From IMG/VR virus record IMGVR_UViG_2534682139_000022, positions 1 to 11,732 of that record: DNA of 11,732 bases. One strand, given 5' to 3'. The notes under the pieces are model-generated. The model was not told the DNA's origin and did no database searches. It worked only from the letters and a program-made list of their open reading frames with translations. Positions 1 to 11,732 of this stretch are shown here, in pieces (position 1 is the stretch's first letter; every line of letters starts with the position of its first letter). Origin of the DNA: a virus. Lineage: Duplodnaviria > Heunggongvirae > Uroviricota > Caudoviricetes. A program made the position numbers and the translations under genes.

Positions 1-549
1 ATGCAATTTAATATCCCTACGTTGCTTACACTGTTCCGTGTCATCCTTATCCCATTCTTTGTATTGGTCTTTTATCTGCCTGTCACCTGGTCGCCGTTTG
101 CCGCCGCGCTCATTTTCTGCGTCGCGGCGGTGACTGACTGGTTCGATGGTTTTCTGGCACGCCGCTGGAACCAGAGTACCCGGTTTGGTGCTTTCCTTGA
201 CCCTGTAGCAGATAAAGTTCTCGTGGCTATCGCCATGGTGCTGGTAACCGAGCATTATCACAGCTGGTGGGTGACCCTACCGGCGGCAACGATGATCGCC
301 CGTGAAATTATTATTTCTGCGCTACGCGAATGGATGGCGGAGTTGGGTAAACGCAGTAGCGTGGCTGTCTCCTGGATTGGGAAAGTGAAAACCACTGCCC
401 AGATGGTGGCGTTGGCCTGGCTGCTGTGGCGTCCGAACATTTGGGTTGAGTACGCCGGTATTGCACTTTTCTTTGTGGCTGCGGTACTGACTCTGTGGTC
501 AATGTTGCAATATTTGAGCGCTTCGCGTGCAGATTTGCTTGATCAGTGA
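1..549 (+). CDS. pgsA: CDP-diacylglycerol--glycerol-3-phosphate 3-phosphatidyltransferase (phosphatidylglycerophosphate synthase)
   Basis: 182-aa ORF starting at base 1 with TGA at 547-549; translation recognised as enterobacterial PgsA (CDP-alcohol phosphatidyltransferase motif region DWFDG...DPVADK); immediately followed by the glyW-cysT-leuZ tRNA cluster as in E. coli. Confidence 0.93.
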
Positions 550-599
550 TCGTTTCGGCGTAATTTTCAGCAAACGATCAAAAGTGGTGAAAAATATCG

Positions 600-627
600 T
601 TGACTCATCGCGCCAGGTAAGTAGAAT
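600..627 (+). promoter_or_regulatory. candidate sigma70 promoter of the tRNA operon (TTGACT -35 at 600-605, 16-bp spacer, TAGAAT -10 at 622-627, AT-rich upstream, GC-rich discriminator downstream)
   Basis: Hexamers read directly from sequence about 75 bp upstream of tRNA-Gly; the spacing is a plausible 16 bp; not experimentally anchored. Confidence 0.4.
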
Positions 628-700
628 GCAACGCATCGAACGGCGGCACTGATTGCCAGACGATAATAAAATCAAGTGATTAACTGATTGCTTGATGAAT

Positions 701-776
<76 letters not shown>

Positions 777-830
777 GTTTAAAAGACATCGGCGTCAAGC
801 GGATGTCTGGCTGAAAGGCCTGAAGAATTT

Positions 831-904
831 GGCGCGTTAACAAAGCGGTTATGTAGCGGATTGCAAATCCGTCTAGTCCGGTTCGACTCCGGAACGCGCC
901 TCCA
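831..904 (+). tRNA. cysT: tRNA-Cys (anticodon GCA)
   Basis: 74-nt sequence GGCGCGTTAACAAAGCGG...GGAACGCGCCTCCA, anticodon loop ATTGCAAAT, encoded CCA. Confidence 0.95.
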
Positions 905-916
905 CTTTCTTCCCGA

Positions 917-1003
917 GCCCGGATGGTGGAATCGGTAGACACAAGGGATTTAAAATCCCTCGGCGTTCGCGCTGTGCGGGTTCAAGTCCCGCTCCGGGTA
1001 CCA
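917..1003 (+). tRNA. leuZ: tRNA-Leu (anticodon TAA), class II tRNA with long variable arm
   Basis: 87-nt sequence GCCCGGATGGTGGAATCGGTAGACACAAGGGATTTAAAATCCC...GGGTACCA, anticodon loop TTTAAAA, encoded CCA. Confidence 0.95.
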
Positions 1004-1045
1004 TGGGAAAGATAAGAATAAAATCAAAGCAATAAGCAGTGTCGT

Positions 1046-1072
1046 GAAACCACCTTCGGGTGGTTTTTTTGT
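1046..1072 (+). terminator. rho-independent terminator of the tRNA operon
   Basis: GC-containing hairpin GAAACCACC-TTCG-GGTGGTTT followed by a T-run (TTTTTTTGT) about 45 nt after leuZ. Confidence 0.7.
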
Positions 1073-1543
1073 ATTTGTATTTTGTTAAATGGCGGTAAAG
1101 TGGCGATGGTGTGGCGATATGCAGAAATAATGATAGTACACGTCTGTTTAAACTCTAAGGGTGAAGCAAAACTCTCCTGCAACTCATCTGCATTTCGCAT
1201 ATTGAACTAGGGCCTTGGTTAAACCAAAGTTTTTTCTGGGATCTTCCCACTCAACTTCATTTTTCCTCCTACCATCCACCAAAAGGTGTCTGCGCTACTC
1301 TATCTTTTTTAATCTGACAACATCCTGAGAAAAAGACAAATTCGTTAGATTTACTGTCTTTCTGCTGCCTCGAATGCTGATGTCTGCAGCACTGATAATA
1401 ACTCTATCTCTTTGATATAGATCTTTTTTTTGATGAATTGCACGGCATATTATCGTGATGGCACCTTCTTGTTAAAGGTGTTGTACTCCTCATCTCGATT
1501 TTATGATGTGGGCTATGATTGGTTAGTAATAGAGTGTATCGGT

Positions 1544-1825
1544 ATGCGATGTGGTTTATTAATGGCAATCTGCCTTTGTTTGGTATCTTTTAGTGGGTAT
1601 GCAGCAACAGGAAAGTCAGATGCTCAGATCAAGAAAGAAATAATTAAAGAATCCATTGAATCTTATCCAGGCAATTGTGCGTGTCCGTATAATCATGCAA
1701 GGAATGGTAGTAGATGTGGTGGACGCAGTGCATATAGCCGTACTGGAGGGTATGACGTGGTATGTTATGAAAGTGATGTTACCGATGAAATGATCCGGCA
1801 ATGGAAGCAGGAGAATGCTGAGTAA
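1544..1825 (+). CDS. small secreted Cys-containing protein of unknown function (predicted signal peptide; motif C-x-C-P-Y...R-C-G-G-R-S-A-Y)
   Basis: ORF 1430-1825 in the six-frame track; internal ATG at 1544 begins a signal-peptide-like N-terminus (MRCGLLMAICLCLVSFSGYAA) followed by a hydrophilic body with 4 Cys; lies in an AT-rich block; the start codon is uncertain (1430, 1544 or 1562) and no strong RBS was seen. Confidence 0.45.
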   Translation: MRCGLLMAICLCLVSFSGYAATGKSDAQIKKEIIKESIESYPGNCACPYNHARNGSRCGGRSAYSRTGGYDVVCYESDVTDEMIRQWKQENAE

Positions 1826-1900
1826 TCTCTTTTAACTGATTTGTTGTGCGAGCATTATGTGCAGTTAACGGCTCACTAGCTAGTGAGAGTTCCAAAAAGA

Positions 1901-1932
1901 AACCCCGCAGTTTTTACGCTGCGGGGTTGTTA
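1901..1932 (+). terminator. hairpin plus T-rich tail downstream of the small secreted-protein gene
   Basis: CCCCGCAG (1903-1910) pairs with CTGCGGGG (1919-1926) around a loop TTTTTACG, followed by TTGTTATTC; preceded by an A-run so it may act in both directions. Confidence 0.5.
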
Positions 1933-1983
1933 TTCATGCCTATGAGATAGGGTGCCTTATCGGCCTTACCCTAGCAACCGATT

Positions 1984-2005
1984 GACGGGGAGTTGCCTCC
2001 CCGTC
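1984..2005 (-). terminator. perfect 9-bp stem / 4-nt loop hairpin immediately 3' of the Hok-like ORF
   Basis: GACGGGGAG-TTGC-CTCCCCGTC read directly; lies 10 nt beyond the minus-strand stop at 2015-2017; there is no clear U-tract, so it may be an mRNA 3' stability or fold-back element rather than a classical terminator. Confidence 0.35.
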
Positions 2006-2014
2006 GCGGTTTCC

Positions 2015-2155
2015 TTACTGCTTACACTGTAAGAACGCCGCAAACTCCGCTCCCCAGAAGCTCATCCGTATTTCACACAGCGAACCGTGCAGCATCCAGA
2101 TGATGAGGATTACCGTCACGCAGAACGTGATGGCCGTAAGCGATTTTTGCGACAT
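2015..2155 (-). CDS. Hok/Gef-family type I toxin-like small membrane protein (46 aa)
   Basis: Not in the ORF track (under 60 aa). Minus-strand translation is MSQKSLTAITFCVTVILIIWMLHGSLCEIRMSFWGAEFAAFLQCKQ: an N-terminal transmembrane helix followed by the Hok-family signature (S/D)LCE(I/V)R ... G-x-E(V/F)AAF. RBS AAGGAG sits 8 nt upstream of the ATG. Confidence 0.6.
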   Translation of the reverse strand: MSQKSLTAITFCVTVILIIWMLHGSLCEIRMSFWGAEFAAFLQCKQ

Positions 2156-2344
2156 AGCGCTTGCTCCTTTGTTGGAGAGGCGCTAACCTATCACTTGCTA
2201 GGTTGACGGGTTAGGGCCTCGGTTAAACAGAAATGTTTTCCGGGGCCTTTCCACATCCGGCCTTCGGGTATTCCCTCCGACCATCAGCCGAAAGGCACCC
2301 GCACGTAATCTATCGCTTTTTTGTTACTCCGGCAATTCTGCCTG

Positions 2345-2605
2345 TTAATTCTGAGGTAAAGGCAAACTCATCTGATTGTTTCCCCTGTGTGAAGCTGGCA
2401 GCTCATGCCACGGGATACCTTCTGATGAGTGAACGCCGGAGGCGTGTTTCGATGTGAATTTATGGAAAGCTTCCAGTGTTGAGAAGCATACGCCGCATTC
2501 CAGGTTGTTACACTGGTAATACTTTTGCCGCACGGTGTTTGAATCATTTTCCGGACGACTGGTGCGGATACGGGCAGATGCGCCACAAAGCGGACAACGG
2601 AACAT
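2345..2605 (-). CDS. ogr: Ogr/Delta-family zinc-finger late-gene transcriptional activator (P2 Ogr-like)
   Basis: N-terminus MFRCPLCGASARIRTSR...YYQCNNLECGVCF matches the P2 Ogr C-x2-C-x22-C-x4-C zinc finger; consensus RBS AAGGAGG 5 nt upstream of the ATG; the ORF is 86 aa, somewhat longer than the 72-aa P2 Ogr. Confidence 0.85.
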   Translation of the reverse strand: MFRCPLCGASARIRTSRPENDSNTVRQKYYQCNNLECGVCFSTLEAFHKFTSKHASGVHSSEGIPWHELPASHRGNNQMSLPLPQN

Positions 2606-2647
2606 AGCGACCTCCTTTAACGTGGTGCTGCCGCTATTCTAAGTTGC

Positions 2648-3757
2648 TCACTCTGTTTCCGCTATCCATTCCGGGATTTTTGCCTCAAGCTCAAGCTGCG
2701 TGGTAAAGCCGCTGTTATCAATGGTGTGCTCGGCTTTTGCAATAATCCAGTCCTGATTATCAATCTCGCTTTTAAATCCTGTTACCGTGCCATGCATTTC
2801 GGGGTAGAGTTCTGCTCGTCCACGTGCCAGCGTGATGGAGAATGATGCGGCTCCGCGTTGTAGTTGTTGCCACTTTGCCGCCGCTGCGCGTCTTGCTGCC
2901 TGCTCGTTCTGATAAGTCTTGCGTAACACAAACACATTGCCTTCCGCGCCTTCCATATAATCACCTTCACGGCTGCTGCTTTTCTCTTTTTTCGGTTTTG
3001 GCGGTTTGCGGCGTTTCACGCTGACTTTTTTCTTTTTCCCGTAATTAAGATCAAGCCAGTAAGCGCGTACCCCCGTATACGCCTCGCGGTCAGCAATGCG
3101 GAACTGATGGCGATCGCCGCTGCTGCGTGTGATGGCGAACGATGGCAACGGCTGGCCCTGTGCGTTCACGCCACCGCCGGGCATGATGAATAACAGATTA
3201 CCGCTTTTTACCGTGGTGATTGCGCCCAGCATTTCCGCCATGCGCGTAAGGAAGGACATGTCACTTTCTTCGGTCTGGTCGGCGTGGTCGATTTCGATAT
3301 CCATCAGCATTTCGCTGATTTGCGGTTTCAGACCGTACCGATGAGCGATGGCGGATACCACACGCTCAACGGTCACATCATGCCAGGACACCTCACGTTT
3401 AACGTTAAATTCATCCCGAAAATCTGCGCTTCTGGCTGAAACAGTCAGCCTGTCCGGCGGTCCTTCGTGTGCGATTTCATCAACAATGTAAGAGCCTTTT
3501 TCTGTCAGCGGTTCGCCTTTCCAGCCAATGAGAACCGTCAGGCGCGCGCCCCGTGGCGGTAGCCGCAACTGACCATCCGCATCATCCAGCGTGATGGTGA
3601 GCTGGTCTGCCTCAAATCCCCGGTTGTCGGTCAGCGACAGGCTCATCAGGCGCTCTGCCACGCCGGACAGCGTTTTACCCTCCGCGAGAATATCAAAATC
3701 CGGCATTTTTACGGGGTCTGTGCCCTGACTGAGCAATTGCATGGTGGTGTCGGTCAT
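2648..3757 (-). CDS. P2 gpD-like tail protein (late control gene D family)
   Basis: The ORF track shows 2648-3889; an internal start at 3757 (MTDTTMQLLSQG...) matches the P2 gpD N-terminus and has RBS GGGAGGG upstream; homology continues across the protein (LSLTDNRGFEADQL, RSADFR, SWHD, EGDYMEGAEGNVF, lysine-rich segment, NSGFTT). Confidence 0.9.
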   Translation of the reverse strand: MTDTTMQLLSQGTDPVKMPDFDILAEGKTLSGVAERLMSLSLTDNRGFEADQLTITLDDADGQLRLPPRGARLTVLIGWKGEPLTEKGSYIVDEIAHEGPPDRLTVSARSADFRDEFNVKREVSWHDVTVERVVSAIAHRYGLKPQISEMLMDIEIDHADQTEESDMSFLTRMAEMLGAITTVKSGNLLFIMPGGGVNAQGQPLPSFAITRSSGDRHQFRIADREAYTGVRAYWLDLNYGKKKKVSVKRRKPPKPKKEKSSSREGDYMEGAEGNVFVLRKTYQNEQAARRAAAAKWQQLQRGAASFSITLARGRAELYPEMHGTVTGFKSEIDNQDWIIAKAEHTIDNSGFTTQLELEAKIPEWIAETE

Positions 3758-3914
3758 CTGTTCCCTCCCTGTGCGGCATGGTCGCATGTGCGTGCGGAGG
3801 GGGTTACTGCTTTTTGTTGTCGCCGGGTCGGGAGAACGGCGCAGGGGTGAGATTACGCGCGTGGTGGGTGATGATTGTTGCCGAATCATTTAACGGATAC
3901 AAGGGGCTGAAGCT

Positions 3915-5099
3915 ATGAGTGAAACTCGTTTTCATGGTGCCCGTGTTACGGAAAATACCGACCTGGTAACAGCGATTAACGATGTTGATTCCAGCGTTAT
4001 CGGTATCGTGGCAACGGCGGATGATGCGGACGCGAAGCTGTTCCCGCTGAACAAGCCTACACTGCTGACCCGCGTCAATGACGTGCTGGGAAAATGCGGA
4101 ACAACGGGGACGCTTTATCGTGCGCTTAAGGCCATCGCAGACCAGGTGAGCACAAAGGTGATCGTCGTTCGCGTGGCTGAACACAAAGAAGAAGACGGTA
4201 AGACGCAGGATCAACTGGTTATCGGTGGTTCTGAGGATGACGGCAGCTATACGGGGATGTATGCGCTGCTTGTTGCAGAGCAGGATGAAAGCATCGGATA
4301 CCGTCCGCGTATTCTGGCCGCGCCGGAGCTGGACACGGAGGCGGTGACAAAATCCCTGTGCGTGATTGCGGGTAAACTGCGCGCGTTTGTGTATGCCACA
4401 TGTCATGGTTGTAACACGATGGCTGAGGCGATTACCTACCGCCAGAAATTCAACGAACGTGAGGTGATGCTCTTATGGCCTGACTTCATCGCCTACAACC
4501 CGAAAAGTGGCAAAAACGAAACGTTCCCCGCGCCTGCTTATGCGTGCGGCCTTCGTGCGTACATTGACCATGAGCAGGGCTGGCACAAATCGCTGTCCAA
4601 TGTTCCGGTTAAAAATGTGCTGGGAATGTCCAGGCATGTGTTCTGGTCGTTGCAGGCCGAAGACAGTGATGCCAACAGCCTCAATAACAAAGAAATCACG
4701 ACCATTATTCGTCGCAACGGGTTCCGCTTCTGGGGCAACCGCACACCGGAAACGAACGCCTACATCTTTGAGGTGTATACCCGAACCGCACAGGTGCTGG
4801 CTGATTCAATTGCGGAAGCGCAGTTTGAAACCATCGACAGTCCACTGACGCCTGCGAACGTGAAGGATGTTATCAGTGCCATCAGGGCAAAACTGGATTC
4901 GCTGGTTACTGCCGGGAAACTGATTGGTGCGGAGTGCTGGTATGACGTGGTGGATAACGGCACCACGGATTTACGTCAGGGACGTGTGCGTATTCGCTAC
5001 AAATATACGCCCGTTCCGCCACTGGAAGACATGGAGCTTTACCAGACGTTTACCGATGAATTCTTTGGTCCCGCATTTGCGGTGCTGGGAGGTGCCTGA
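3915..5099 (+). CDS. P2 gpFI-like contractile tail sheath protein
   Basis: 394-aa ORF with RBS AAGGGG; conserved blocks shared with P2 FI (FPLNKP, QGWHKSLSNV, IRRNGFRFWGNRT, YTRTAQV, YTPVPPLE). Confidence 0.95.
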   Translation: MSETRFHGARVTENTDLVTAINDVDSSVIGIVATADDADAKLFPLNKPTLLTRVNDVLGKCGTTGTLYRALKAIADQVSTKVIVVRVAEHKEEDGKTQDQLVIGGSEDDGSYTGMYALLVAEQDESIGYRPRILAAPELDTEAVTKSLCVIAGKLRAFVYATCHGCNTMAEAITYRQKFNEREVMLLWPDFIAYNPKSGKNETFPAPAYACGLRAYIDHEQGWHKSLSNVPVKNVLGMSRHVFWSLQAEDSDANSLNNKEITTIIRRNGFRFWGNRTPETNAYIFEVYTRTAQVLADSIAEAQFETIDSPLTPANVKDVISAIRAKLDSLVTAGKLIGAECWYDVVDNGTTDLRQGRVRIRYKYTPVPPLEDMELYQTFTDEFFGPAFAVLGGA

Positions 5100-5611
5100 T
5101 GGCTGTGCCAAAACATCTTCGCTTTTTTACGTTGTTTGTGGATGGTGAAAACGAAGTGGGCAAAGTGACATCCGTCACGCCGCCCAAACTGACGCGCAAA
5201 ACCGACAGCTATCGTGGTGGTGGCATGATGGGGGCGGTAAGTATTGATCTCGGTCTGGACGACTCCGCGCTTGATGCGAGTTTTGTTATGGGGGGAGCTG
5301 TTCGTGCGCTGTTCCTTAAATATGGCGGCACGATTGACGGCACGCTGCTGCGTTTTGCGGGTGAATACTACACCGATGCAGAAAGCGATCTGTATGAGAT
5401 CGAGATGCGCGGGCGTGTGACGGAAATTGATATGGGGGAAGCCAAACAGGGGGAAGCCACATCACACACTTACGCTGTCAAAAACACCTACTACAAGCTG
5501 AGCGTTAACGATCGCCCGCTGTGGGAAATCGACCTGTTGAACCACATCTACCGGAAGGACGGCAAGGACATTGTGCCTGACCGTATCCGTTCCGCGCTTG
5601 GGCTTGGCTGA
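5099..5611 (+). CDS. P2 gpFII-like tail tube protein
   Basis: 170-aa ORF whose start overlaps the FI stop (ATGA-type overlap at 5097-5101); conserved blocks PKLTRK, YRGGGM, DLGLDD, RFAG, EIDMGE, KQGE. Confidence 0.93.
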   Translation: MAVPKHLRFFTLFVDGENEVGKVTSVTPPKLTRKTDSYRGGGMMGAVSIDLGLDDSALDASFVMGGAVRALFLKYGGTIDGTLLRFAGEYYTDAESDLYEIEMRGRVTEIDMGEAKQGEATSHTYAVKNTYYKLSVNDRPLWEIDLLNHIYRKDGKDIVPDRIRSALGLG

Positions 5612-5666
5612 TAAGTAATATGCAGGCGGCGCAGTGCGTCGCCTCTGACTGAAAAGGAGACAACTG

Positions 5667-6041
5667 ATGAAAGACATCGATACTGAAACCCGGAATAACA
5701 CCGTGGCGGATGATGTGACGGCAGGTGAGGATATGGCTGTCGAACGTGGCGTAAAACTGACCCGACCAATTGAGCGTGGTGGCGAAAAAATCACGTATGT
5801 GGAGATCACCGGGGCTATTGAGCAGGCTGGATCCCTGCGTGGTCTGTCGCTGTCTGATGTGCTGAATCTGAAAGCGGATACCATGTTTATGCTGTTGCCT
5901 CGCGTGACCTCGCCACGACTGGATGAAGTGATGATTAAAAAAATGTCGTCACGCGATTTTATTCAGTTGTGCGCTGTGGCTGTAAATTTTATGAGCGAGC
6001 CAGACTCTGGCGCGAAGAGCGTGCAGGAGACGGCAGCGTAA
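5667..6041 (+). CDS. P2 gpE-like tail assembly chaperone (zero-frame product)
   Basis: 124-aa ORF with RBS AAGGAG; contains PIERGGEKIT and GSLRGL motifs typical of gpE; position between tail tube and tape measure genes. Confidence 0.85.
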   Translation: MKDIDTETRNNTVADDVTAGEDMAVERGVKLTRPIERGGEKITYVEITGAIEQAGSLRGLSLSDVLNLKADTMFMLLPRVTSPRLDEVMIKKMSSRDFIQLCAVAVNFMSEPDSGAKSVQETAA

Positions 6042-6205
6042 TCACCCTGGTGTGCTTTGAGCACATCGAAGATCTGGTGGCGGATATTGCCGCCATTTTC
6101 AACTGGTCGCCCGCCGAAATCTTCATGATGACGCCCGGCGAAGTGGTTAGCTGGCGCGAGCGGGCGGCACTTCGCAGCGGGAATGCAGATAATGAAGACT
6201 CTTGA
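5939..6205 (+). CDS. E' extension frame (-1 relative to E) for the programmed-frameshift product gpE+E'
   Basis: The -1 frame is open from 5939 to TGA at 6203-6205, overlaps the 3' part of E and the start of T, and encodes a protein-like tail (SVITLVCFEHIEDLVADIAAIFNWSPAEIF...); there is no convincing independent start; this mirrors the P2 E/E' and lambda G/GT arrangement. Confidence 0.55.
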   Translation, partial: KNVVTRFYSVVRCGCKFYERARLWREERAGDGSVITLVCFEHIEDLVADIAAIFNWSPAEIFMMTPGEVVSWRERAALRSGNADNEDS

Positions 6206-8999
6206 TATCCGGGTCGCTTTCAGCGCCGTTGACAGGCTGACCCGGCCTGCCGAAAACGCCCGCCGCCTGATGGGGCAGTTTGGTGACTCCATCCAGCGAA
6301 CGCAGGGGGCGATTAAAAATCTCGAGCGTCAGGCGCGTTCATTTGAGCGCGCCCGTGACGCTGTCAGTAAAGCGGATGCTGGCATCGTGAAAGCACGACG
6401 CCAGCTTAACGCCCTTAATCAGTTACAACGTACGGGTACAGTGCTCAGCGAAAAACAACAAAAGCTGATGCAGCAGTTAAGCACCCGGCTTGAACGCCTG
6501 AATGAATCGCGCACACGGGAAATTCAAAAAATGCGGGAGCTTGGCGGAGAGCTGAAACGCCACGGCATTTCCCTGACAGGCAGCGATAACACCATCCAGC
6601 AGGCCATCAGACGCACCGAACAGTACAACAACCAGCTTGAACGCGAACGGCAGGCGCTTGCGCGTGTAACGCGGGCGCGTGAGCGGTATTCGCGCGCGCA
6701 GGAAACAGCGGGAAAACTGAAAACAGGTGGTGCACTGGCAATTGGTGCGGCAGCGGCGGGCGGCTATGCTGCCGGGCGTTTTTTGCAGCCTGCGATCGGG
6801 TTCGGCAAAGAGATGTCCCGCGTTCAGGCACTGACGCGAATCGACAAAAACAGCCCGCAGTTTAAGGCGCTGCGTGAGCAGGCGTTAAAACTTGGATCTG
6901 AAACACCGTTTACTGCGAGTGATGCCGCCAGTGGGCAGAGCTTTCTGGCAATGGCTGGTTTTACTCCGCAGGCCATTCAGGCCGCATTGCCCGGTGTTCT
7001 TAATATGGCGCTGGCAGGTGGCGTCGAACTCGGCGAGACGGCTGATATAGGCTCCAATATCCTCACACAGTTCAACCTGACAGCCGATCAAATGGACCGG
7101 GTTGGCGATACGCTGACAGCGGCATTCACCCGGACCAATACTGATTTACGCGCGCTGGGCGAAACCATGAAGTATACCGGTCCGGTTGCCGCAAAACTTG
7201 GTATCAGTCTTGAAGAAGCGGCAGCCATGGCCGGGATGCTTGCCAGTAATGGTCTTCGTGGAAGCGATGCTGGTACGGCCATGCGCGCAAGTCTGTCCCG
7301 CCTTGCATCACCGCCAAAAGCTGCGGCTGATGCGCTGAAAGAGCTGGGGGTGTCAGTTGCTGACGCCAGGGGCAAAATGCGCCCGATGGAGGATGTGCTG
7401 CTTGATCTCTATAAGGCGACACAAAAATACGGACAGGTGGACCAGGTTTCCTTCTTCAAGGACATCGCCGGAGAAGAGGCGTTCGTTGGTTTGCAGACGC
7501 TTGTTGCGGCGGCTGGTTCAGGAGAGCTGCAAAAACTGACCAGAGAATTGCAGGGGGCAAGGGGAGAGGTCGATCGCGTCGCAAAAGTAATGGCCGATAA
7601 TCTTGATGGGGACCTGAAAAATCTCGACAGCGCATGGGAAGGTCTTCGTATTCGCATCAGTGATCTGGTTGACGGTCCGCTGCGTTCTGTCACGCAGTGG
7701 CTCACGCGGGTGCTTGAAAAAATCACCTCGCTGGCGCAGGCCCATCCGGTACTGACGCGCCAGCTACTGATAGCAGGCGGTGCGTTGCTGGCAATGACTG
7801 CAACGGTTGGCTCGTTGTCGCTGGTTATTGGTGTGCTTTACGGAAAGCTGGCCACCCTGCGTCTTGGCTTTGACATTCTTACCCGGTCAATGAATGTCGT
7901 CAGGGTGTTGCCTGCGCTGTGGGGAATGCTGACGGGTTCCGTTTCGTTACTGGGAGGCGCTATCGGGGCGCTGTTCAGTCCGGTTGGCCTTATCGTGGCT
8001 GCGCTTGCCGGAGCTGCCGTTCTTATCTGGAAATACTGGGATCCCATCAGGGCATTTTTTGCCGGGGTGTTCAGCGGGATTATGGAAAGGCTGACCCCGT
8101 TGCGCGAAACCTTTGAACGGTTTGGCCCTGTTTTTGACGCAATCGGAAGCGGGATCAGCCAGGTGTTTAACTGGTTTAAATCGCTGCTGTCACCGATGGA
8201 GTCCAGCAAGGAAACGCTGGATAAATGTACCAGTGCTGGCGAGATATTCGGTAACGTTCTTGGCGGTGCGTTACAACTTGTTCTGACACCTGCAAAAATG
8301 CTACTGGATACGCTGGCGTGGATACTTGAAAAGCTTGGCGTGCTTCCGGATGAAGCTGAAAGGGCGCGCAAGAAAATCGAAGACGCACAGCGTGCGGCCA
8401 TTCTTCGGGACAAGGTTGCCTTACTTCAGGGGGACCTGGCGAAAATCAATCCGCCGAAGCCTGTGGAAAATGGCAATGGCACCGGAGGTGATAACCCCAA
8501 AGACAATAAACCGCTCACAGACAGCAATACCGGTACGCTGCGCAGACTCAGCAAAATTGCTGATAACACAGGTAAGCTGGTTGATGAGACGAAAAAACGC
8601 ATTGGCCCTGGCGATATTGTCTTTAAGAACCTGCCCCGCGCACTTGCTGTTCGTGGGGAGTGGCAGGAGCGGAAGATTGCGCAGGTCAGTAAGCCTGCCC
8701 CCGCAATTAATATCACACCCGTAGTCCCGGCTCCGCTGCCTCCGGCGCTGGTCCCTGTTGTTGCGGCCAGCTCCCGCCCGGTGGCGGAGGCCATACGATC
8801 GCCAGTGGCATCAGTTCCTGCAGCTTCCCGTAATCGGGAGCCTGCTGTCTCCAGATTTGGCGGTGAAATTCATGTTCATCTGCATAACGTTGTTACGCAG
8901 AATCCCCGCGAACTGGCGAAACTGGTCGGTGAAATGGTCAGGGCAGAAATGGAACGGCGCGCCCGTGCCGGGCGTGGCAGTTTTTACGATAAAGATTGA
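6183..8999 (+). CDS. P2 gpT-like tail tape measure protein
   Basis: 938-aa ORF between the E/E' and U homologs; coiled-coil-rich N-terminal third, central hydrophobic/Gly-rich segment and Pro-rich C-terminal region typical of tape measure proteins; start may be ATG 6183 or ATG 6192 (the latter has better RBS spacing). Confidence 0.9.
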   Translation: MQIMKTLDIRVAFSAVDRLTRPAENARRLMGQFGDSIQRTQGAIKNLERQARSFERARDAVSKADAGIVKARRQLNALNQLQRTGTVLSEKQQKLMQQLSTRLERLNESRTREIQKMRELGGELKRHGISLTGSDNTIQQAIRRTEQYNNQLERERQALARVTRARERYSRAQETAGKLKTGGALAIGAAAAGGYAAGRFLQPAIGFGKEMSRVQALTRIDKNSPQFKALREQALKLGSETPFTASDAASGQSFLAMAGFTPQAIQAALPGVLNMALAGGVELGETADIGSNILTQFNLTADQMDRVGDTLTAAFTRTNTDLRALGETMKYTGPVAAKLGISLEEAAAMAGMLASNGLRGSDAGTAMRASLSRLASPPKAAADALKELGVSVADARGKMRPMEDVLLDLYKATQKYGQVDQVSFFKDIAGEEAFVGLQTLVAAAGSGELQKLTRELQGARGEVDRVAKVMADNLDGDLKNLDSAWEGLRIRISDLVDGPLRSVTQWLTRVLEKITSLAQAHPVLTRQLLIAGGALLAMTATVGSLSLVIGVLYGKLATLRLGFDILTRSMNVVRVLPALWGMLTGSVSLLGGAIGALFSPVGLIVAALAGAAVLIWKYWDPIRAFFAGVFSGIMERLTPLRETFERFGPVFDAIGSGISQVFNWFKSLLSPMESSKETLDKCTSAGEIFGNVLGGALQLVLTPAKMLLDTLAWILEKLGVLPDEAERARKKIEDAQRAAILRDKVALLQGDLAKINPPKPVENGNGTGGDNPKDNKPLTDSNTGTLRRLSKIADNTGKLVDETKKRIGPGDIVFKNLPRALAVRGEWQERKIAQVSKPAPAINITPVVPAPLPPALVPVVAASSRPVAEAIRSPVASVPAASRNREPAVSRFGGEIHVHLHNVVTQNPRELAKLVGEMVRAEMERRARAGRGSFYDKD

Positions 9000-9005
9000 G
9001 GAGTC

Positions 9006-9347
9006 ATGGCCATGATGATGATCTATGGCATGTTTGTTTTTGAGCTGCGCACGCTGCCGCATCAGCAGTTACAGCAAAACAAAAGCTGGCGGCATGTGAA
9101 AAATGAACGCGTTAACCGTTCAGCAAGCTGGCAGTATATCGGTGCAGGTGATGATCGCATCGTTCTTTCTGGTGTGCTTTATCCTGAAATTACAGGTGGC
9201 GAAGTGTCGCTGTCTCTGCTGACCACGCAGGCGTATACAGGACGACCCTGGCCTTTGATTGATGGCGTCGGGCAGATTTACGGCATGTATGTCCTGACTG
9301 AAACGATACGACCCGCTCCGAGTTTGATCCGTAATAACTTCGTATAG
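9006..9347 (+). CDS. P2 gpU-like tail protein, 3'-truncated (about 111-113 aa versus about 159 aa expected); stop codon lies inside the loxP-like site
   Basis: N-terminus [14 protein letters not shown]...WRH...GDD..SGVL.PEITGG resembles P2 gpU; RBS GAGGAG favours ATG 9012 as the start; the frame ends at TAG 9345-9347 inside the loxP-like sequence; the last roughly 10 codons before that are not recognisably gpU-like. Confidence 0.78.
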
Positions 9348-9912
9348 CATACATATATACGAAGTTATACGATACTGTTGTATCACACGATTCACAATAC
9401 CGATATGTCTTCCATGCAGCCAGTAACGATGCCTCTTCTTCCGTCGCAATATCCAAATCTACAGCATCCTGAAGTGGCGCAATATGCTCGCTAGCTACCT
9501 GCATCAGGCTGTTTTTTGTTTCTTCCGCCTCCTGGCTCCGAAACAGTTTTTCTGCTTCTGCATCTTTCACCCAGGATGTACCGTTCCACTTCTGAAACTC
9601 CCCTTCCGGGGATAACCAGGTGACATTTTCCGGTAATGGGCCAAGTTCAGAAATAAATAACGCGTCGCCGGAAGCCACGTCATAGACGGTATAACCCCGA
9701 TGGTCTTCAACGAGATGCCACGATGCCTCATCACTGTTGAAAACGGCCACGAAGCCAGCCGGAATATCTGGCGGGGCAATATCGGTACTGTTTGCAGGCA
9801 GACCTGTATGAGGTGGAATGTATGCATCACCTTCACCAATAAACTCATTGGTTCCGGTCAGTAGATTATAAATTTTTATGGTCCGTGAGTGTTCACTCAT
9901 TCTGAATGTCAT
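9190..9912 (-). CDS. tfa: tail fibre assembly protein (lambda Tfa / P2 gpG family) with aberrant C-terminus; native homology stops near 9400 and the frame then reads through the loxP-like site and antisense gpU
   Basis: N-terminal 166 aa ([59 protein letters not shown]...LLAAWKTYR) closely match lambdoid Tfa; the start overlaps the tail-fibre stop (TAATG); the C-terminal 70-odd residues are not Tfa-like. Confidence 0.8.
9334..9368. other. loxP-like recombination site (ATAACTTCGTATA-GCATACAT-A-TATACGAAGTTAT), 35 bp, canonical loxP plus one extra A
   Basis: Read directly: 13-bp left arm, 8-bp spacer GCATACAT and right arm identical to loxP except for one inserted A at the spacer/arm boundary; no cre gene or P1 sequence context in the window. 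Confidence 0.85.
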
Positions 9913-11732
9913 TATGCAAGCCTCACAATATAGTTAAATGCGATGTTTTTTACGGTGTTTTCTTCGTTACCCGTAGCGTTAACGGTGATGGTGTGTCCGT
10001 GGGGACCAATAATGACAGAATGGGCATGAGCACCAATGCCGATAGTGTGGTTATGGGCACCGATATATACATTGTGAGCATGCTCGCCTGCGCTCGACGT
10101 GGTACCAGTACCTAACGCAGCGTTATAACCGGCTGATACACCATTCCCCGCGCCAGTGTGACCAACAGGTATATTGTGTGAATGATTTCCAGCGCTATTC
10201 GTAGTTTTTGTGCCGTAATCAAATGAACTGGTCGTTTTAGTACCGTAATCAAACGACGATGTGGTTTTCGTCCCCAAATCCGTACTGGATGCGCTGGCGC
10301 TGTGGGTGTGCGATTTAATGCCGTCCTGTTCCTGAGACAATACGGCACGACCACTGCCGGGCTTGCCCTTAATCGTCCAGCCACGCATATCAGGAATAAC
10401 GCCTGACGGATAAGCGACTGCAAGTTTCGGGTATGCAGATTTGTCAAAAGTCTGCCCCTGCATCAGGGCATAACCAGACGGAACGGTATCTGATGGCCAC
10501 GGAATCGGTGCACCGACTGGATAAAACTCTTCAGGAGGATGAGCCGAGGTGTAAAGCTGCGCCCACGGCGACCAGTTTGCGTCGGGCGTATCCCGTCGTG
10601 AACGAATAAATGCCGGAGCATGAGCACCGCTTATACCACTCCAGCCGATGAGTAATTCGCCTTCGCCAACGGCTGTCATCCCTTTCAGGTGAATGATATT
10701 TCCATACGTTGTTGGATATCCGTTGTTATACGCCTCGTATAACTCCAGACCTGTGGCCCCCTGCATATTATCTGTCAGGGCGGTCAGCCGACCTTTTGAA
10801 GCCAGATTAACTGACGATACTGCTGTCCCATCTGACGGTAACGCCCCGATCTCTGATGCTGTTGGCTTATTCCTGGAGTTATAGTCCCTTCGCCAGCCAG
10901 GAGCATAAGCATCACCATGATTAATATAAGTAAATTGAGCATTAGGGATGCCTTCACCGCTGGATGTACTCGGTGTGGTAATGCGTATGGTCATTGCGCC
11001 GCGGGTGCCAATAACTTCCACAACAGCACCTGCAAGACAAATACTTCCGCAACCTGTATCTGTAATGACCTTATTATTTGCATAAGCCCATGAGCCTTTG
11101 CACATCCAGTAAGGATGGTTAAATGCCCCCTGACTCTCTAGCCAAAAAATCAACTGCGCAGTTGTCCATGCTTCACTATCTCCACCAATATTCAGCTCTG
11201 CACTATATGCACGGCAGGCACCGATATTTTTCGTAAAGGTGTCTTTATCAGAGATATCCTCACCATTCTTAGCTTTCTGCAGACGTTTTTCAGCATTGTC
11301 ATAGGCAGCTTTTACTGCATTTGATGTTGCCGCCAGCGTTTCAGATGTACTGTTGGTTGCACTACTAAGCTGGACAAGGCCTTTTCGCGCTGTTGTGGCA
11401 TCCTGCGCTGTATATTTTCCGTTAGCAAGATCATACGCGACCTTAACCGCTTTCGGCGTTGCAGCCAGCGTTTCAGAATCGCTGTTAGTGGCGCTACTGA
11501 GTTGAACAAAGCCTTTTGCGGTCAGCGAGGCGTCCGGGTGACGTCGTGACTGTTCATGTTCTTTCAGTTTGTCATTCACGTAATCCACTGTGGCCATAAC
11601 CATGGTGTTATCCACGGTAAGCGCCACGGTGGCAGTGCTGGATACGGTCAGAATGGTGCGAAATGTTTGTGCACGTCCGGATCCTTCGGCAACGGCTGGC
11701 TTGTAACTTTCGGCAGTATTGCCCACCGCGAT
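9912..11732 (-). CDS. tail fibre protein, P2 gpH-like N-terminal region with side-tail-fibre-type C-terminal receptor-binding region (5' end outside the window)
   Basis: The frame is open to the window edge; the N-terminal part in window ([13 protein letters not shown]...[37 protein letters not shown] repeated) matches the P2 gpH conserved region; the C-terminus carries HxH motifs ([34 protein letters not shown]) typical of phage tail-fibre tips. Confidence 0.9.
10204..10293 (-). repeat. three tandem imperfect 30-bp in-frame repeats inside the tail fibre gene (encode [10 protein letters not shown] x2 plus a degenerate third copy)
   Basis: Units at 10204-10233, 10234-10263 and 10264-10293 read directly; about 22/30 identity between units 1 and 2, weaker for unit 3. 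Confidence 0.6.

Follow-up and report, generated by a model that had tools for sequence, protein, structure and literature searches.

An apparent lox site in a P2-like prophage of Escherichia coli 3.2608 is a sequencing-library linker, and neither a genomic nor an engineered lox site. Together with the frameshifted sequence on both of its sides, it almost certainly represents an assembly artefact that arose through a leftover 454 linker, reflecting neither biology nor genome engineering. Using exact-protein look-up, we identified the window (the whole stretch of DNA that was analysed, 11,732 nt) as the terminal 11,732 nt of a draft contig of 63.6 kb (AEZS02000014.1; assembly GCA_000215205.2, E. 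coli 3.2608). The same look-up found the 111-aa U-like ORF in one record, on this contig, where the protein is titled “phage P2 GpU [Escherichia coli 3.2608]” (GenBank protein id: EIH53345.1, 111 aa). The window contains pgsA and genes for tRNA-Gly, tRNA-Cys and tRNA-Leu, followed by the tail half of a P2-like prophage (hok, ogr, D, sheath, tube, E/E', tape measure T and U); after U, the minus strand carries tfa and the tail fibre gene H. Two intact prophages served as references, one at serS in strain FWSEC0007 (L001) and one at pgsA in strain 2011C-4315 (L002). The features discussed below are as follows, in window coordinates.

9012-9347, plus strand: artefactual “GpU” ORF (EIH53345.1, 111 aa), in which U residues 1-98 are genuine and are followed by a frameshift and read-through of the linker to a stop codon
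9216-9329, plus strand: left contig piece, reaching 114 nt into a 1,457-bp identical block (comparison of L002 and L001)
9306, plus strand: U-side deletion (native AA to A), with U frameshifted after ...LTET (alignment to L001 and L002)
9330-9372, no strand assigned: Roche 454 Titanium paired-end/mate-pair circularization linker, CGTA + loxP + ACGA, 43 nt (42-nt linker plus an inserted A)
9334-9368, no strand assigned: loxP core within the linker, with 13-nt arms at 9334-9346 and 9356-9368, spacer GCATACATA and an extra A at 9355
9373-9733, plus strand: right contig piece, reaching 361 nt into the 1,457-bp identical block (comparison of L002 and L001)
9373-9912, minus strand: tfa (tail fibre assembly gene), with its last 36 nt missing and frameshifted near the linker
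9385-9401, minus strand: three homopolymer shortenings at the 3' end of tfa, AA to A at 9385, AA to A at 9394 and CCC to CC at 9400-9401 (alignment)

In a global alignment, positions 9330-9372 matched CGTAATAACTTCGTATAGCATACATTATACGAAGTTATACGA with 42/42 matches and one gap. This sequence and its reverse complement have been published as the Roche 454 circularization (Cre) adaptor, for trimming from mate-pair reads (PMC5199103, PMC7038657). Both loxP arms in the window are perfect, and the spacer has 9 nt versus the 8 nt that loxP requires. A match to the annotated P1 loxP (GenBank accession: X03453.1) paired 38 query nucleotides with 37 subject nucleotides. In a search of a phage collection, matches to P1, P7 and P1-like phages covered query positions 33-70 only, which is the 34-bp core plus 1-2 nt; the sequence around the core is thus not that of P1. 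The probability that the eight extra flanking bases (CGTA and ACGA) match the linker by chance is ~1.5e-5.

The sequence-only reading had proposed that homolog-like coding beside the site survives only in shifted frames, owing to a cluster of single-nucleotide indels, and base-level alignment with L001 and L002 bore this out. Compared with these intact relatives, the window has four 1-nt deletions, one on the U side and three on the tfa side, at distances of 14-28 nt from the linker. On the U side, native ACGAATACG appears in the window as ACGATACG, leaving one A at 9306. In native U the sequence is ...YVLTETNTTRSEFDRYGKAKK; the tail of U in the window differs, and TTRSEFD persists in the -1 frame, as had been suspected. 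Over this stretch, native ...LTETNTTRSEFDRYGK changes to a 17-residue sequence in the window. On the tfa side, native TCAACACG is changed to TCACACG by the deletion at 9385, TTCAACAAT to TTCACAAT by that at 9394, and ATACCCGAT to ATACCGAT by that at 9400-9401. The Tfa frame is lost past KTYR and, because three single nucleotides were lost, is restored at DTTV, in agreement with the earlier reading of this side.

The alignments revealed no further indels in 1-9305 relative to L002 or in 9402-11732 relative to L001. If spread at random, five indels in 11,732 nt would all fall inside one given 112-nt interval with a probability of ~8e-11. All four flank deletions shorten a homopolymer run, although only ~36% of local positions lie in runs (P ~0.016); this pattern and the restriction of the deletions to 14-28 nt from the linker both support an artefact. 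The extra A in the linker core falls outside the homopolymer pattern, as it splits a TT (CATTATA to CATATATA). An alignment of the flanks with related prophages had been suggested as a check, and it found that relatives with intact genes do not share the indel-bearing flanks: the deletion-bearing sequence was absent from every close relative checked, and these relatives have the full bases. Likewise, the right piece, a query of 2,360 bases, spans 2,363 subject bases in all top matches listed, which therefore carry the three bases missing from the window. Of the two sources that the sequence-only reading had offered for such a cluster, locally poor sequence quality was essentially the right one, as homopolymer shortening is a typical 454 error.

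The linker stands in the place of 978 bp that are found between the same flanks in intact relatives (L001 10632-11609). The order at the junction is deletion-like: its left part runs up to L002 9330, and its right part resumes at L002 10309, after a gap of 978 bp. In relatives, this segment comprises the last 56 codons of U, a 573-bp gene annotated as “serine O-acetyltransferase,” and the last 11 codons of tfa. The native acetyltransferase gene (L001 10958-11530; 190 aa, GenBank protein id: WP_000954201.1) is AT-rich and is sited between U and tfa, at the convergence of the two tail-gene blocks. It is likely a cargo (moron) gene, and its predicted product possibly modifies surface polysaccharide.

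In relatives such as FWSEC0007, P2-like prophages occupy two sites, pgsA/tRNA-Leu and serS. A 1,457-bp block is identical in pgsA-type and serS-type prophages (L002 9216-10672 and L001 10517-11973), with no differences between L002 and L001 from L002 9215 to 10673; it contains the acetyltransferase gene together with most of U and the 3' two-thirds of tfa, and the two types diverge on both sides of it. For this comparison, L002 stood in for FWSEC0007's own pgsA copy; identical accessions are assigned at these two loci to the tape measure, U, acetyltransferase, tfa and tail fibre proteins. Around the block, the T and tail-fibre genes diverge by 3-14% between the two prophage types of FWSEC0007 (O103:H2). 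The identity of the block suggests recent gene conversion or exchange of a cargo-gene module.

Both contig pieces end within this block. The right piece in full covers 9373-11732 (2.36 kb) and reaches the contig end. A 454 Titanium read is ~400 nt long; an exact repeat of 1.46 kb exceeds such a read, and assemblies tend to break there. U protein fragments of 79-121 aa in the native frame, most of them labelled “partial,” occur in many other draft assemblies, which suggests that contigs often break at the U location.

Megablast searches with each flank covered the 5,426 complete E. coli genomes in RefSeq. The U-side flank had matches in >1,300 genomes and the tfa-side flank in >4,500 genomes; however, the junction itself was absent from all 5,426, including those in which ≥80% of the left flank (1,365 genomes) or of the right piece (763 genomes) was covered. 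A search for distant matches to 9290-9420 in E. coli genomes returned a sole extended lox match, on a plasmid contig of E. coli PMV-1 (pECOS88-like contig 1, NZ_CBTO010000001.1, positions 19-71), where it lies 19-71 nt from the contig end. This contig reads ...ACGTA-ATAACTTCGTATAGCATACATTATACGAAGTTAT-ACGAA..., and thus has the non-lox flanks CGTA and ACGA in common with the window. We considered whether PMV-1 could be a second strain engineered in the same way, and this was ruled out by its genome announcement, which describes a clinical strain of wild type and sequencing “using pyrosequencing by Macrogen.” The PMV-1 linker, 18 nt from the contig end, adjoins an annotated truncated sitA-like pseudogene; this “incomplete” gene call is likely due to the linker spur.

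The linker was also found well beyond E. coli. We scanned bacterial and archaeal genomes, one representative per species, and identified 94 stretches with the exact 42-mer in unrelated draft genomes, including Leptospira, Legionella, Gemmata, Kitasatospora, Streptococcus and Xenorhabdus, and many of these stretches lie 5-75 nt from a contig end. Some of the linker-bearing Leptospira contigs have names of the form “ctg1134...” and are presumably JCVI assemblies. Several drafts hold the linker in numbers: dozens of copies occur in the assembly of Candidatus Paracaedibacter symbiosus PRA9, with as many as 7 within 8 kb, scaffolds of Litoribacter populi have copies regularly spaced 129 nt apart, and the Legionella tunisiensis assembly has many copies at contig ends. 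Within the phage collection, Lactococcus phage Q33 (JX564242.1/NC_049809.1, positions 17544-17584) matched 41 of the 42 linker nucleotides, probably through an assembly artefact of the same kind. The stretch in Q33 lies between the annotated Orf34 and Orf33 and overlaps the annotated 5' end (start) of the portal gene; the record is that of a “complete” phage genome and has a RefSeq accession as well.

The linker in the window agrees with Roche 454 GS FLX Titanium paired-end linker contamination in having the same 42 nt, including the non-lox flanks, near the end of a draft contig, which is also where it occurs in PMV-1, in GTDB representative drafts and in Q33. In contrast to those cases, it bridges two genuine neighbouring segments rather than forming a terminal spur, and it has one inserted base. 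The deletions resemble 454 homopolymer undercalls (AA to A three times, CCC to CC once) at the place where coverage or quality is expected to be lowest; however, the runs concerned are short (2-3 nt), and runs of that length are usually accurate in 454 data, which implies very low coverage or read-end quality at the join. The join also resembles the breaks and misjoins that repeats induce in co-resident P2-like prophages of STEC, as it lies inside the 1,457-bp identical block, but a gap is the usual outcome of such breaks, and in this case the linker falsely closed it.

Literature searches for AEZS, GCA_000215205 and strain 3.2608 returned nothing on the sequencing method of E. coli 3.2608; the presence of the linker suggests that the reads came from a 454 paired-end library. 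In such libraries, genomic fragments are circularized with loxP adaptors, and Cre leaves the 42-nt linker between fragment ends, from which software has to detect and trim it. In this assembly, one linker almost certainly escaped removal and bridged two pieces of contig. The two contig ends would have stalled within the 1.46-kb shared repeat and then been falsely joined via the linker, with the true 978 bp between them skipped. Coverage at the join was presumably low, and the consensus adjacent to the linker probably represents one or very few low-quality read ends, in which 454 homopolymer undercalls and a miscalled linker base would have stayed uncorrected; uncorrected undercalls beside the linker would in turn produce the apparent frameshifts.

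Because the order at the junction is deletion-like, an additional event is needed. A single unsplit mate-pair read was ruled out, since it would be expected to have the opposite order, with the left sequence one insert length downstream of the right, and on a circular excised phage genome the fragment would have to be ~30 kb or longer. The route to the join may instead have been a single chimeric linker-containing read or a merge by the assembler of two linker-tipped contig ends. In the first case, an intermolecular Cre chimera would have been accepted by the assembler as consistent with scaffold adjacency; in the second, the contig ends would have merged on their common linker, which might also explain the extra A.

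An engineered deletion is very improbable. It would have been made in a lambda-Red-like manner with long oligonucleotide homology arms and a floxed marker, leaving a Cre scar with n-1 errors in the arms, as the sequence-only reading had supposed. The lox core is present, and all of the indels fall within ~30 nt of the site, which fits arms of 40 nt. In common with an engineered loxP scar, the window has two 13-nt arms with the GCATACAT spacer sequence, in place of ~1 kb of native DNA; unlike such a scar, it has a 9-nt spacer, sequencing-adaptor flanks and endpoints that show no rational design. The premise of Cre/lox engineering found no support, as the supposed scar and its 4-nt flanks correspond exactly to the commercial 454 linker and the same “scar” is present in unrelated, non-engineered, pyrosequenced genomes. 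A lox site with a 9-nt spacer should be a poor substrate for Cre, and the site in the window is unlikely to be a product of excision. The endpoints fall in mid-codon (U after residue 106 and tfa after residue 181), without design logic. Oligonucleotide synthesis errors, an idea that depends on this premise, would not favour homopolymers, whereas all four deletions shorten them; nor would such errors account for the adaptor flanks or for finding the same “scar” in unrelated genomes. We found no sign of engineering for strain 3.2608, part of a series of natural isolates: the adjacent WGS prefixes (AEZV, AEZX, AEZZ and AFAA-AFAC) belong to JCVI drafts of natural STEC isolates whose strain names follow the same numeric style, and E. 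coli 3.2608 itself appears to be a natural isolate.

We regard it as equally improbable that the linker is artefactual while the 1-nt deletions in its flanks are real mutations of U and tfa in this strain. Such mutations would have to occur beside the linker and nowhere else in 11.6 kb, shorten a homopolymer in every case and be shared by no relative. Still less probable is that E. coli 3.2608, or its sequenced stock, is an undocumented engineered derivative with a true lox-marked deletion of 978 bp, whose scar matches the 454 linker by coincidence; were that deletion true, it would have removed the prophage acetyltransferase gene and the ends of both neighbouring genes. The least credible alternative is a natural event in which Cre recombination captured a P1-family loxP, with a real 978-bp deletion and local decay: loxP is native to P1, and P1-like plasmids are common in E. 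coli (588 plasmid lox matches), but similarity to P1, P7 and P1-like phages ends 1-2 nt past the 34-bp core, CGTA and ACGA are not P1 sequence, the window has no other P1 DNA, the junction occurs in 0 of 5,426 complete E. coli genomes, and five indels within 95 nt with none in the other 11.6 kb are unlike natural decay.

With the linker read as a sequencing artefact, the consequences are confined to data quality and annotation. EIH53345.1 is an artefactual truncated and frameshifted protein in GenBank; the acetyltransferase gene is falsely absent from contig AEZS02000014.1, and no tfa gene is called in the deposited record. Comparative analyses could misread the state of these three genes as gene loss or pseudogenisation in an STEC prophage. 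The CGTA-loxP-ACGA 42-mer should be filtered out when scanning for engineered DNA, since this sequencing adaptor persists in many public assemblies.

The window also changes prophage type inside T (6192-8999), at 7757-8495. Positions 1-7750 correspond to the pgsA-type prophage (1 mismatch relative to L002) and positions 8495-11500 to the serS-type prophage (0 substitutions relative to L001), while the stretch of T at 7757-8495 differs from both references. This combination of prophage types within T was found in no complete E. coli genome, the best match reaching 98.7% over 7000-9305. Either natural recombination or a second chimeric join of co-resident prophages could account for the switch. 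In the comparison of the right piece with L001, all nine substitutions fell in 11500-11732, in the tail-fibre gene and the last 230 nt before the contig end, and this region may be a further repeat or variant boundary at which the contig ended. Gene D (2648-3757, minus strand) is annotated in the GenBank record of the contig as a 369-aa Phage_GPD protein, whereas for identical DNA in L002 and in a further sequence (L099), RefSeq calls a 266-aa “VgrG/Pvc8 family” protein and a small pseudogene; this discrepancy is one of annotated start site, the sequence being unchanged.
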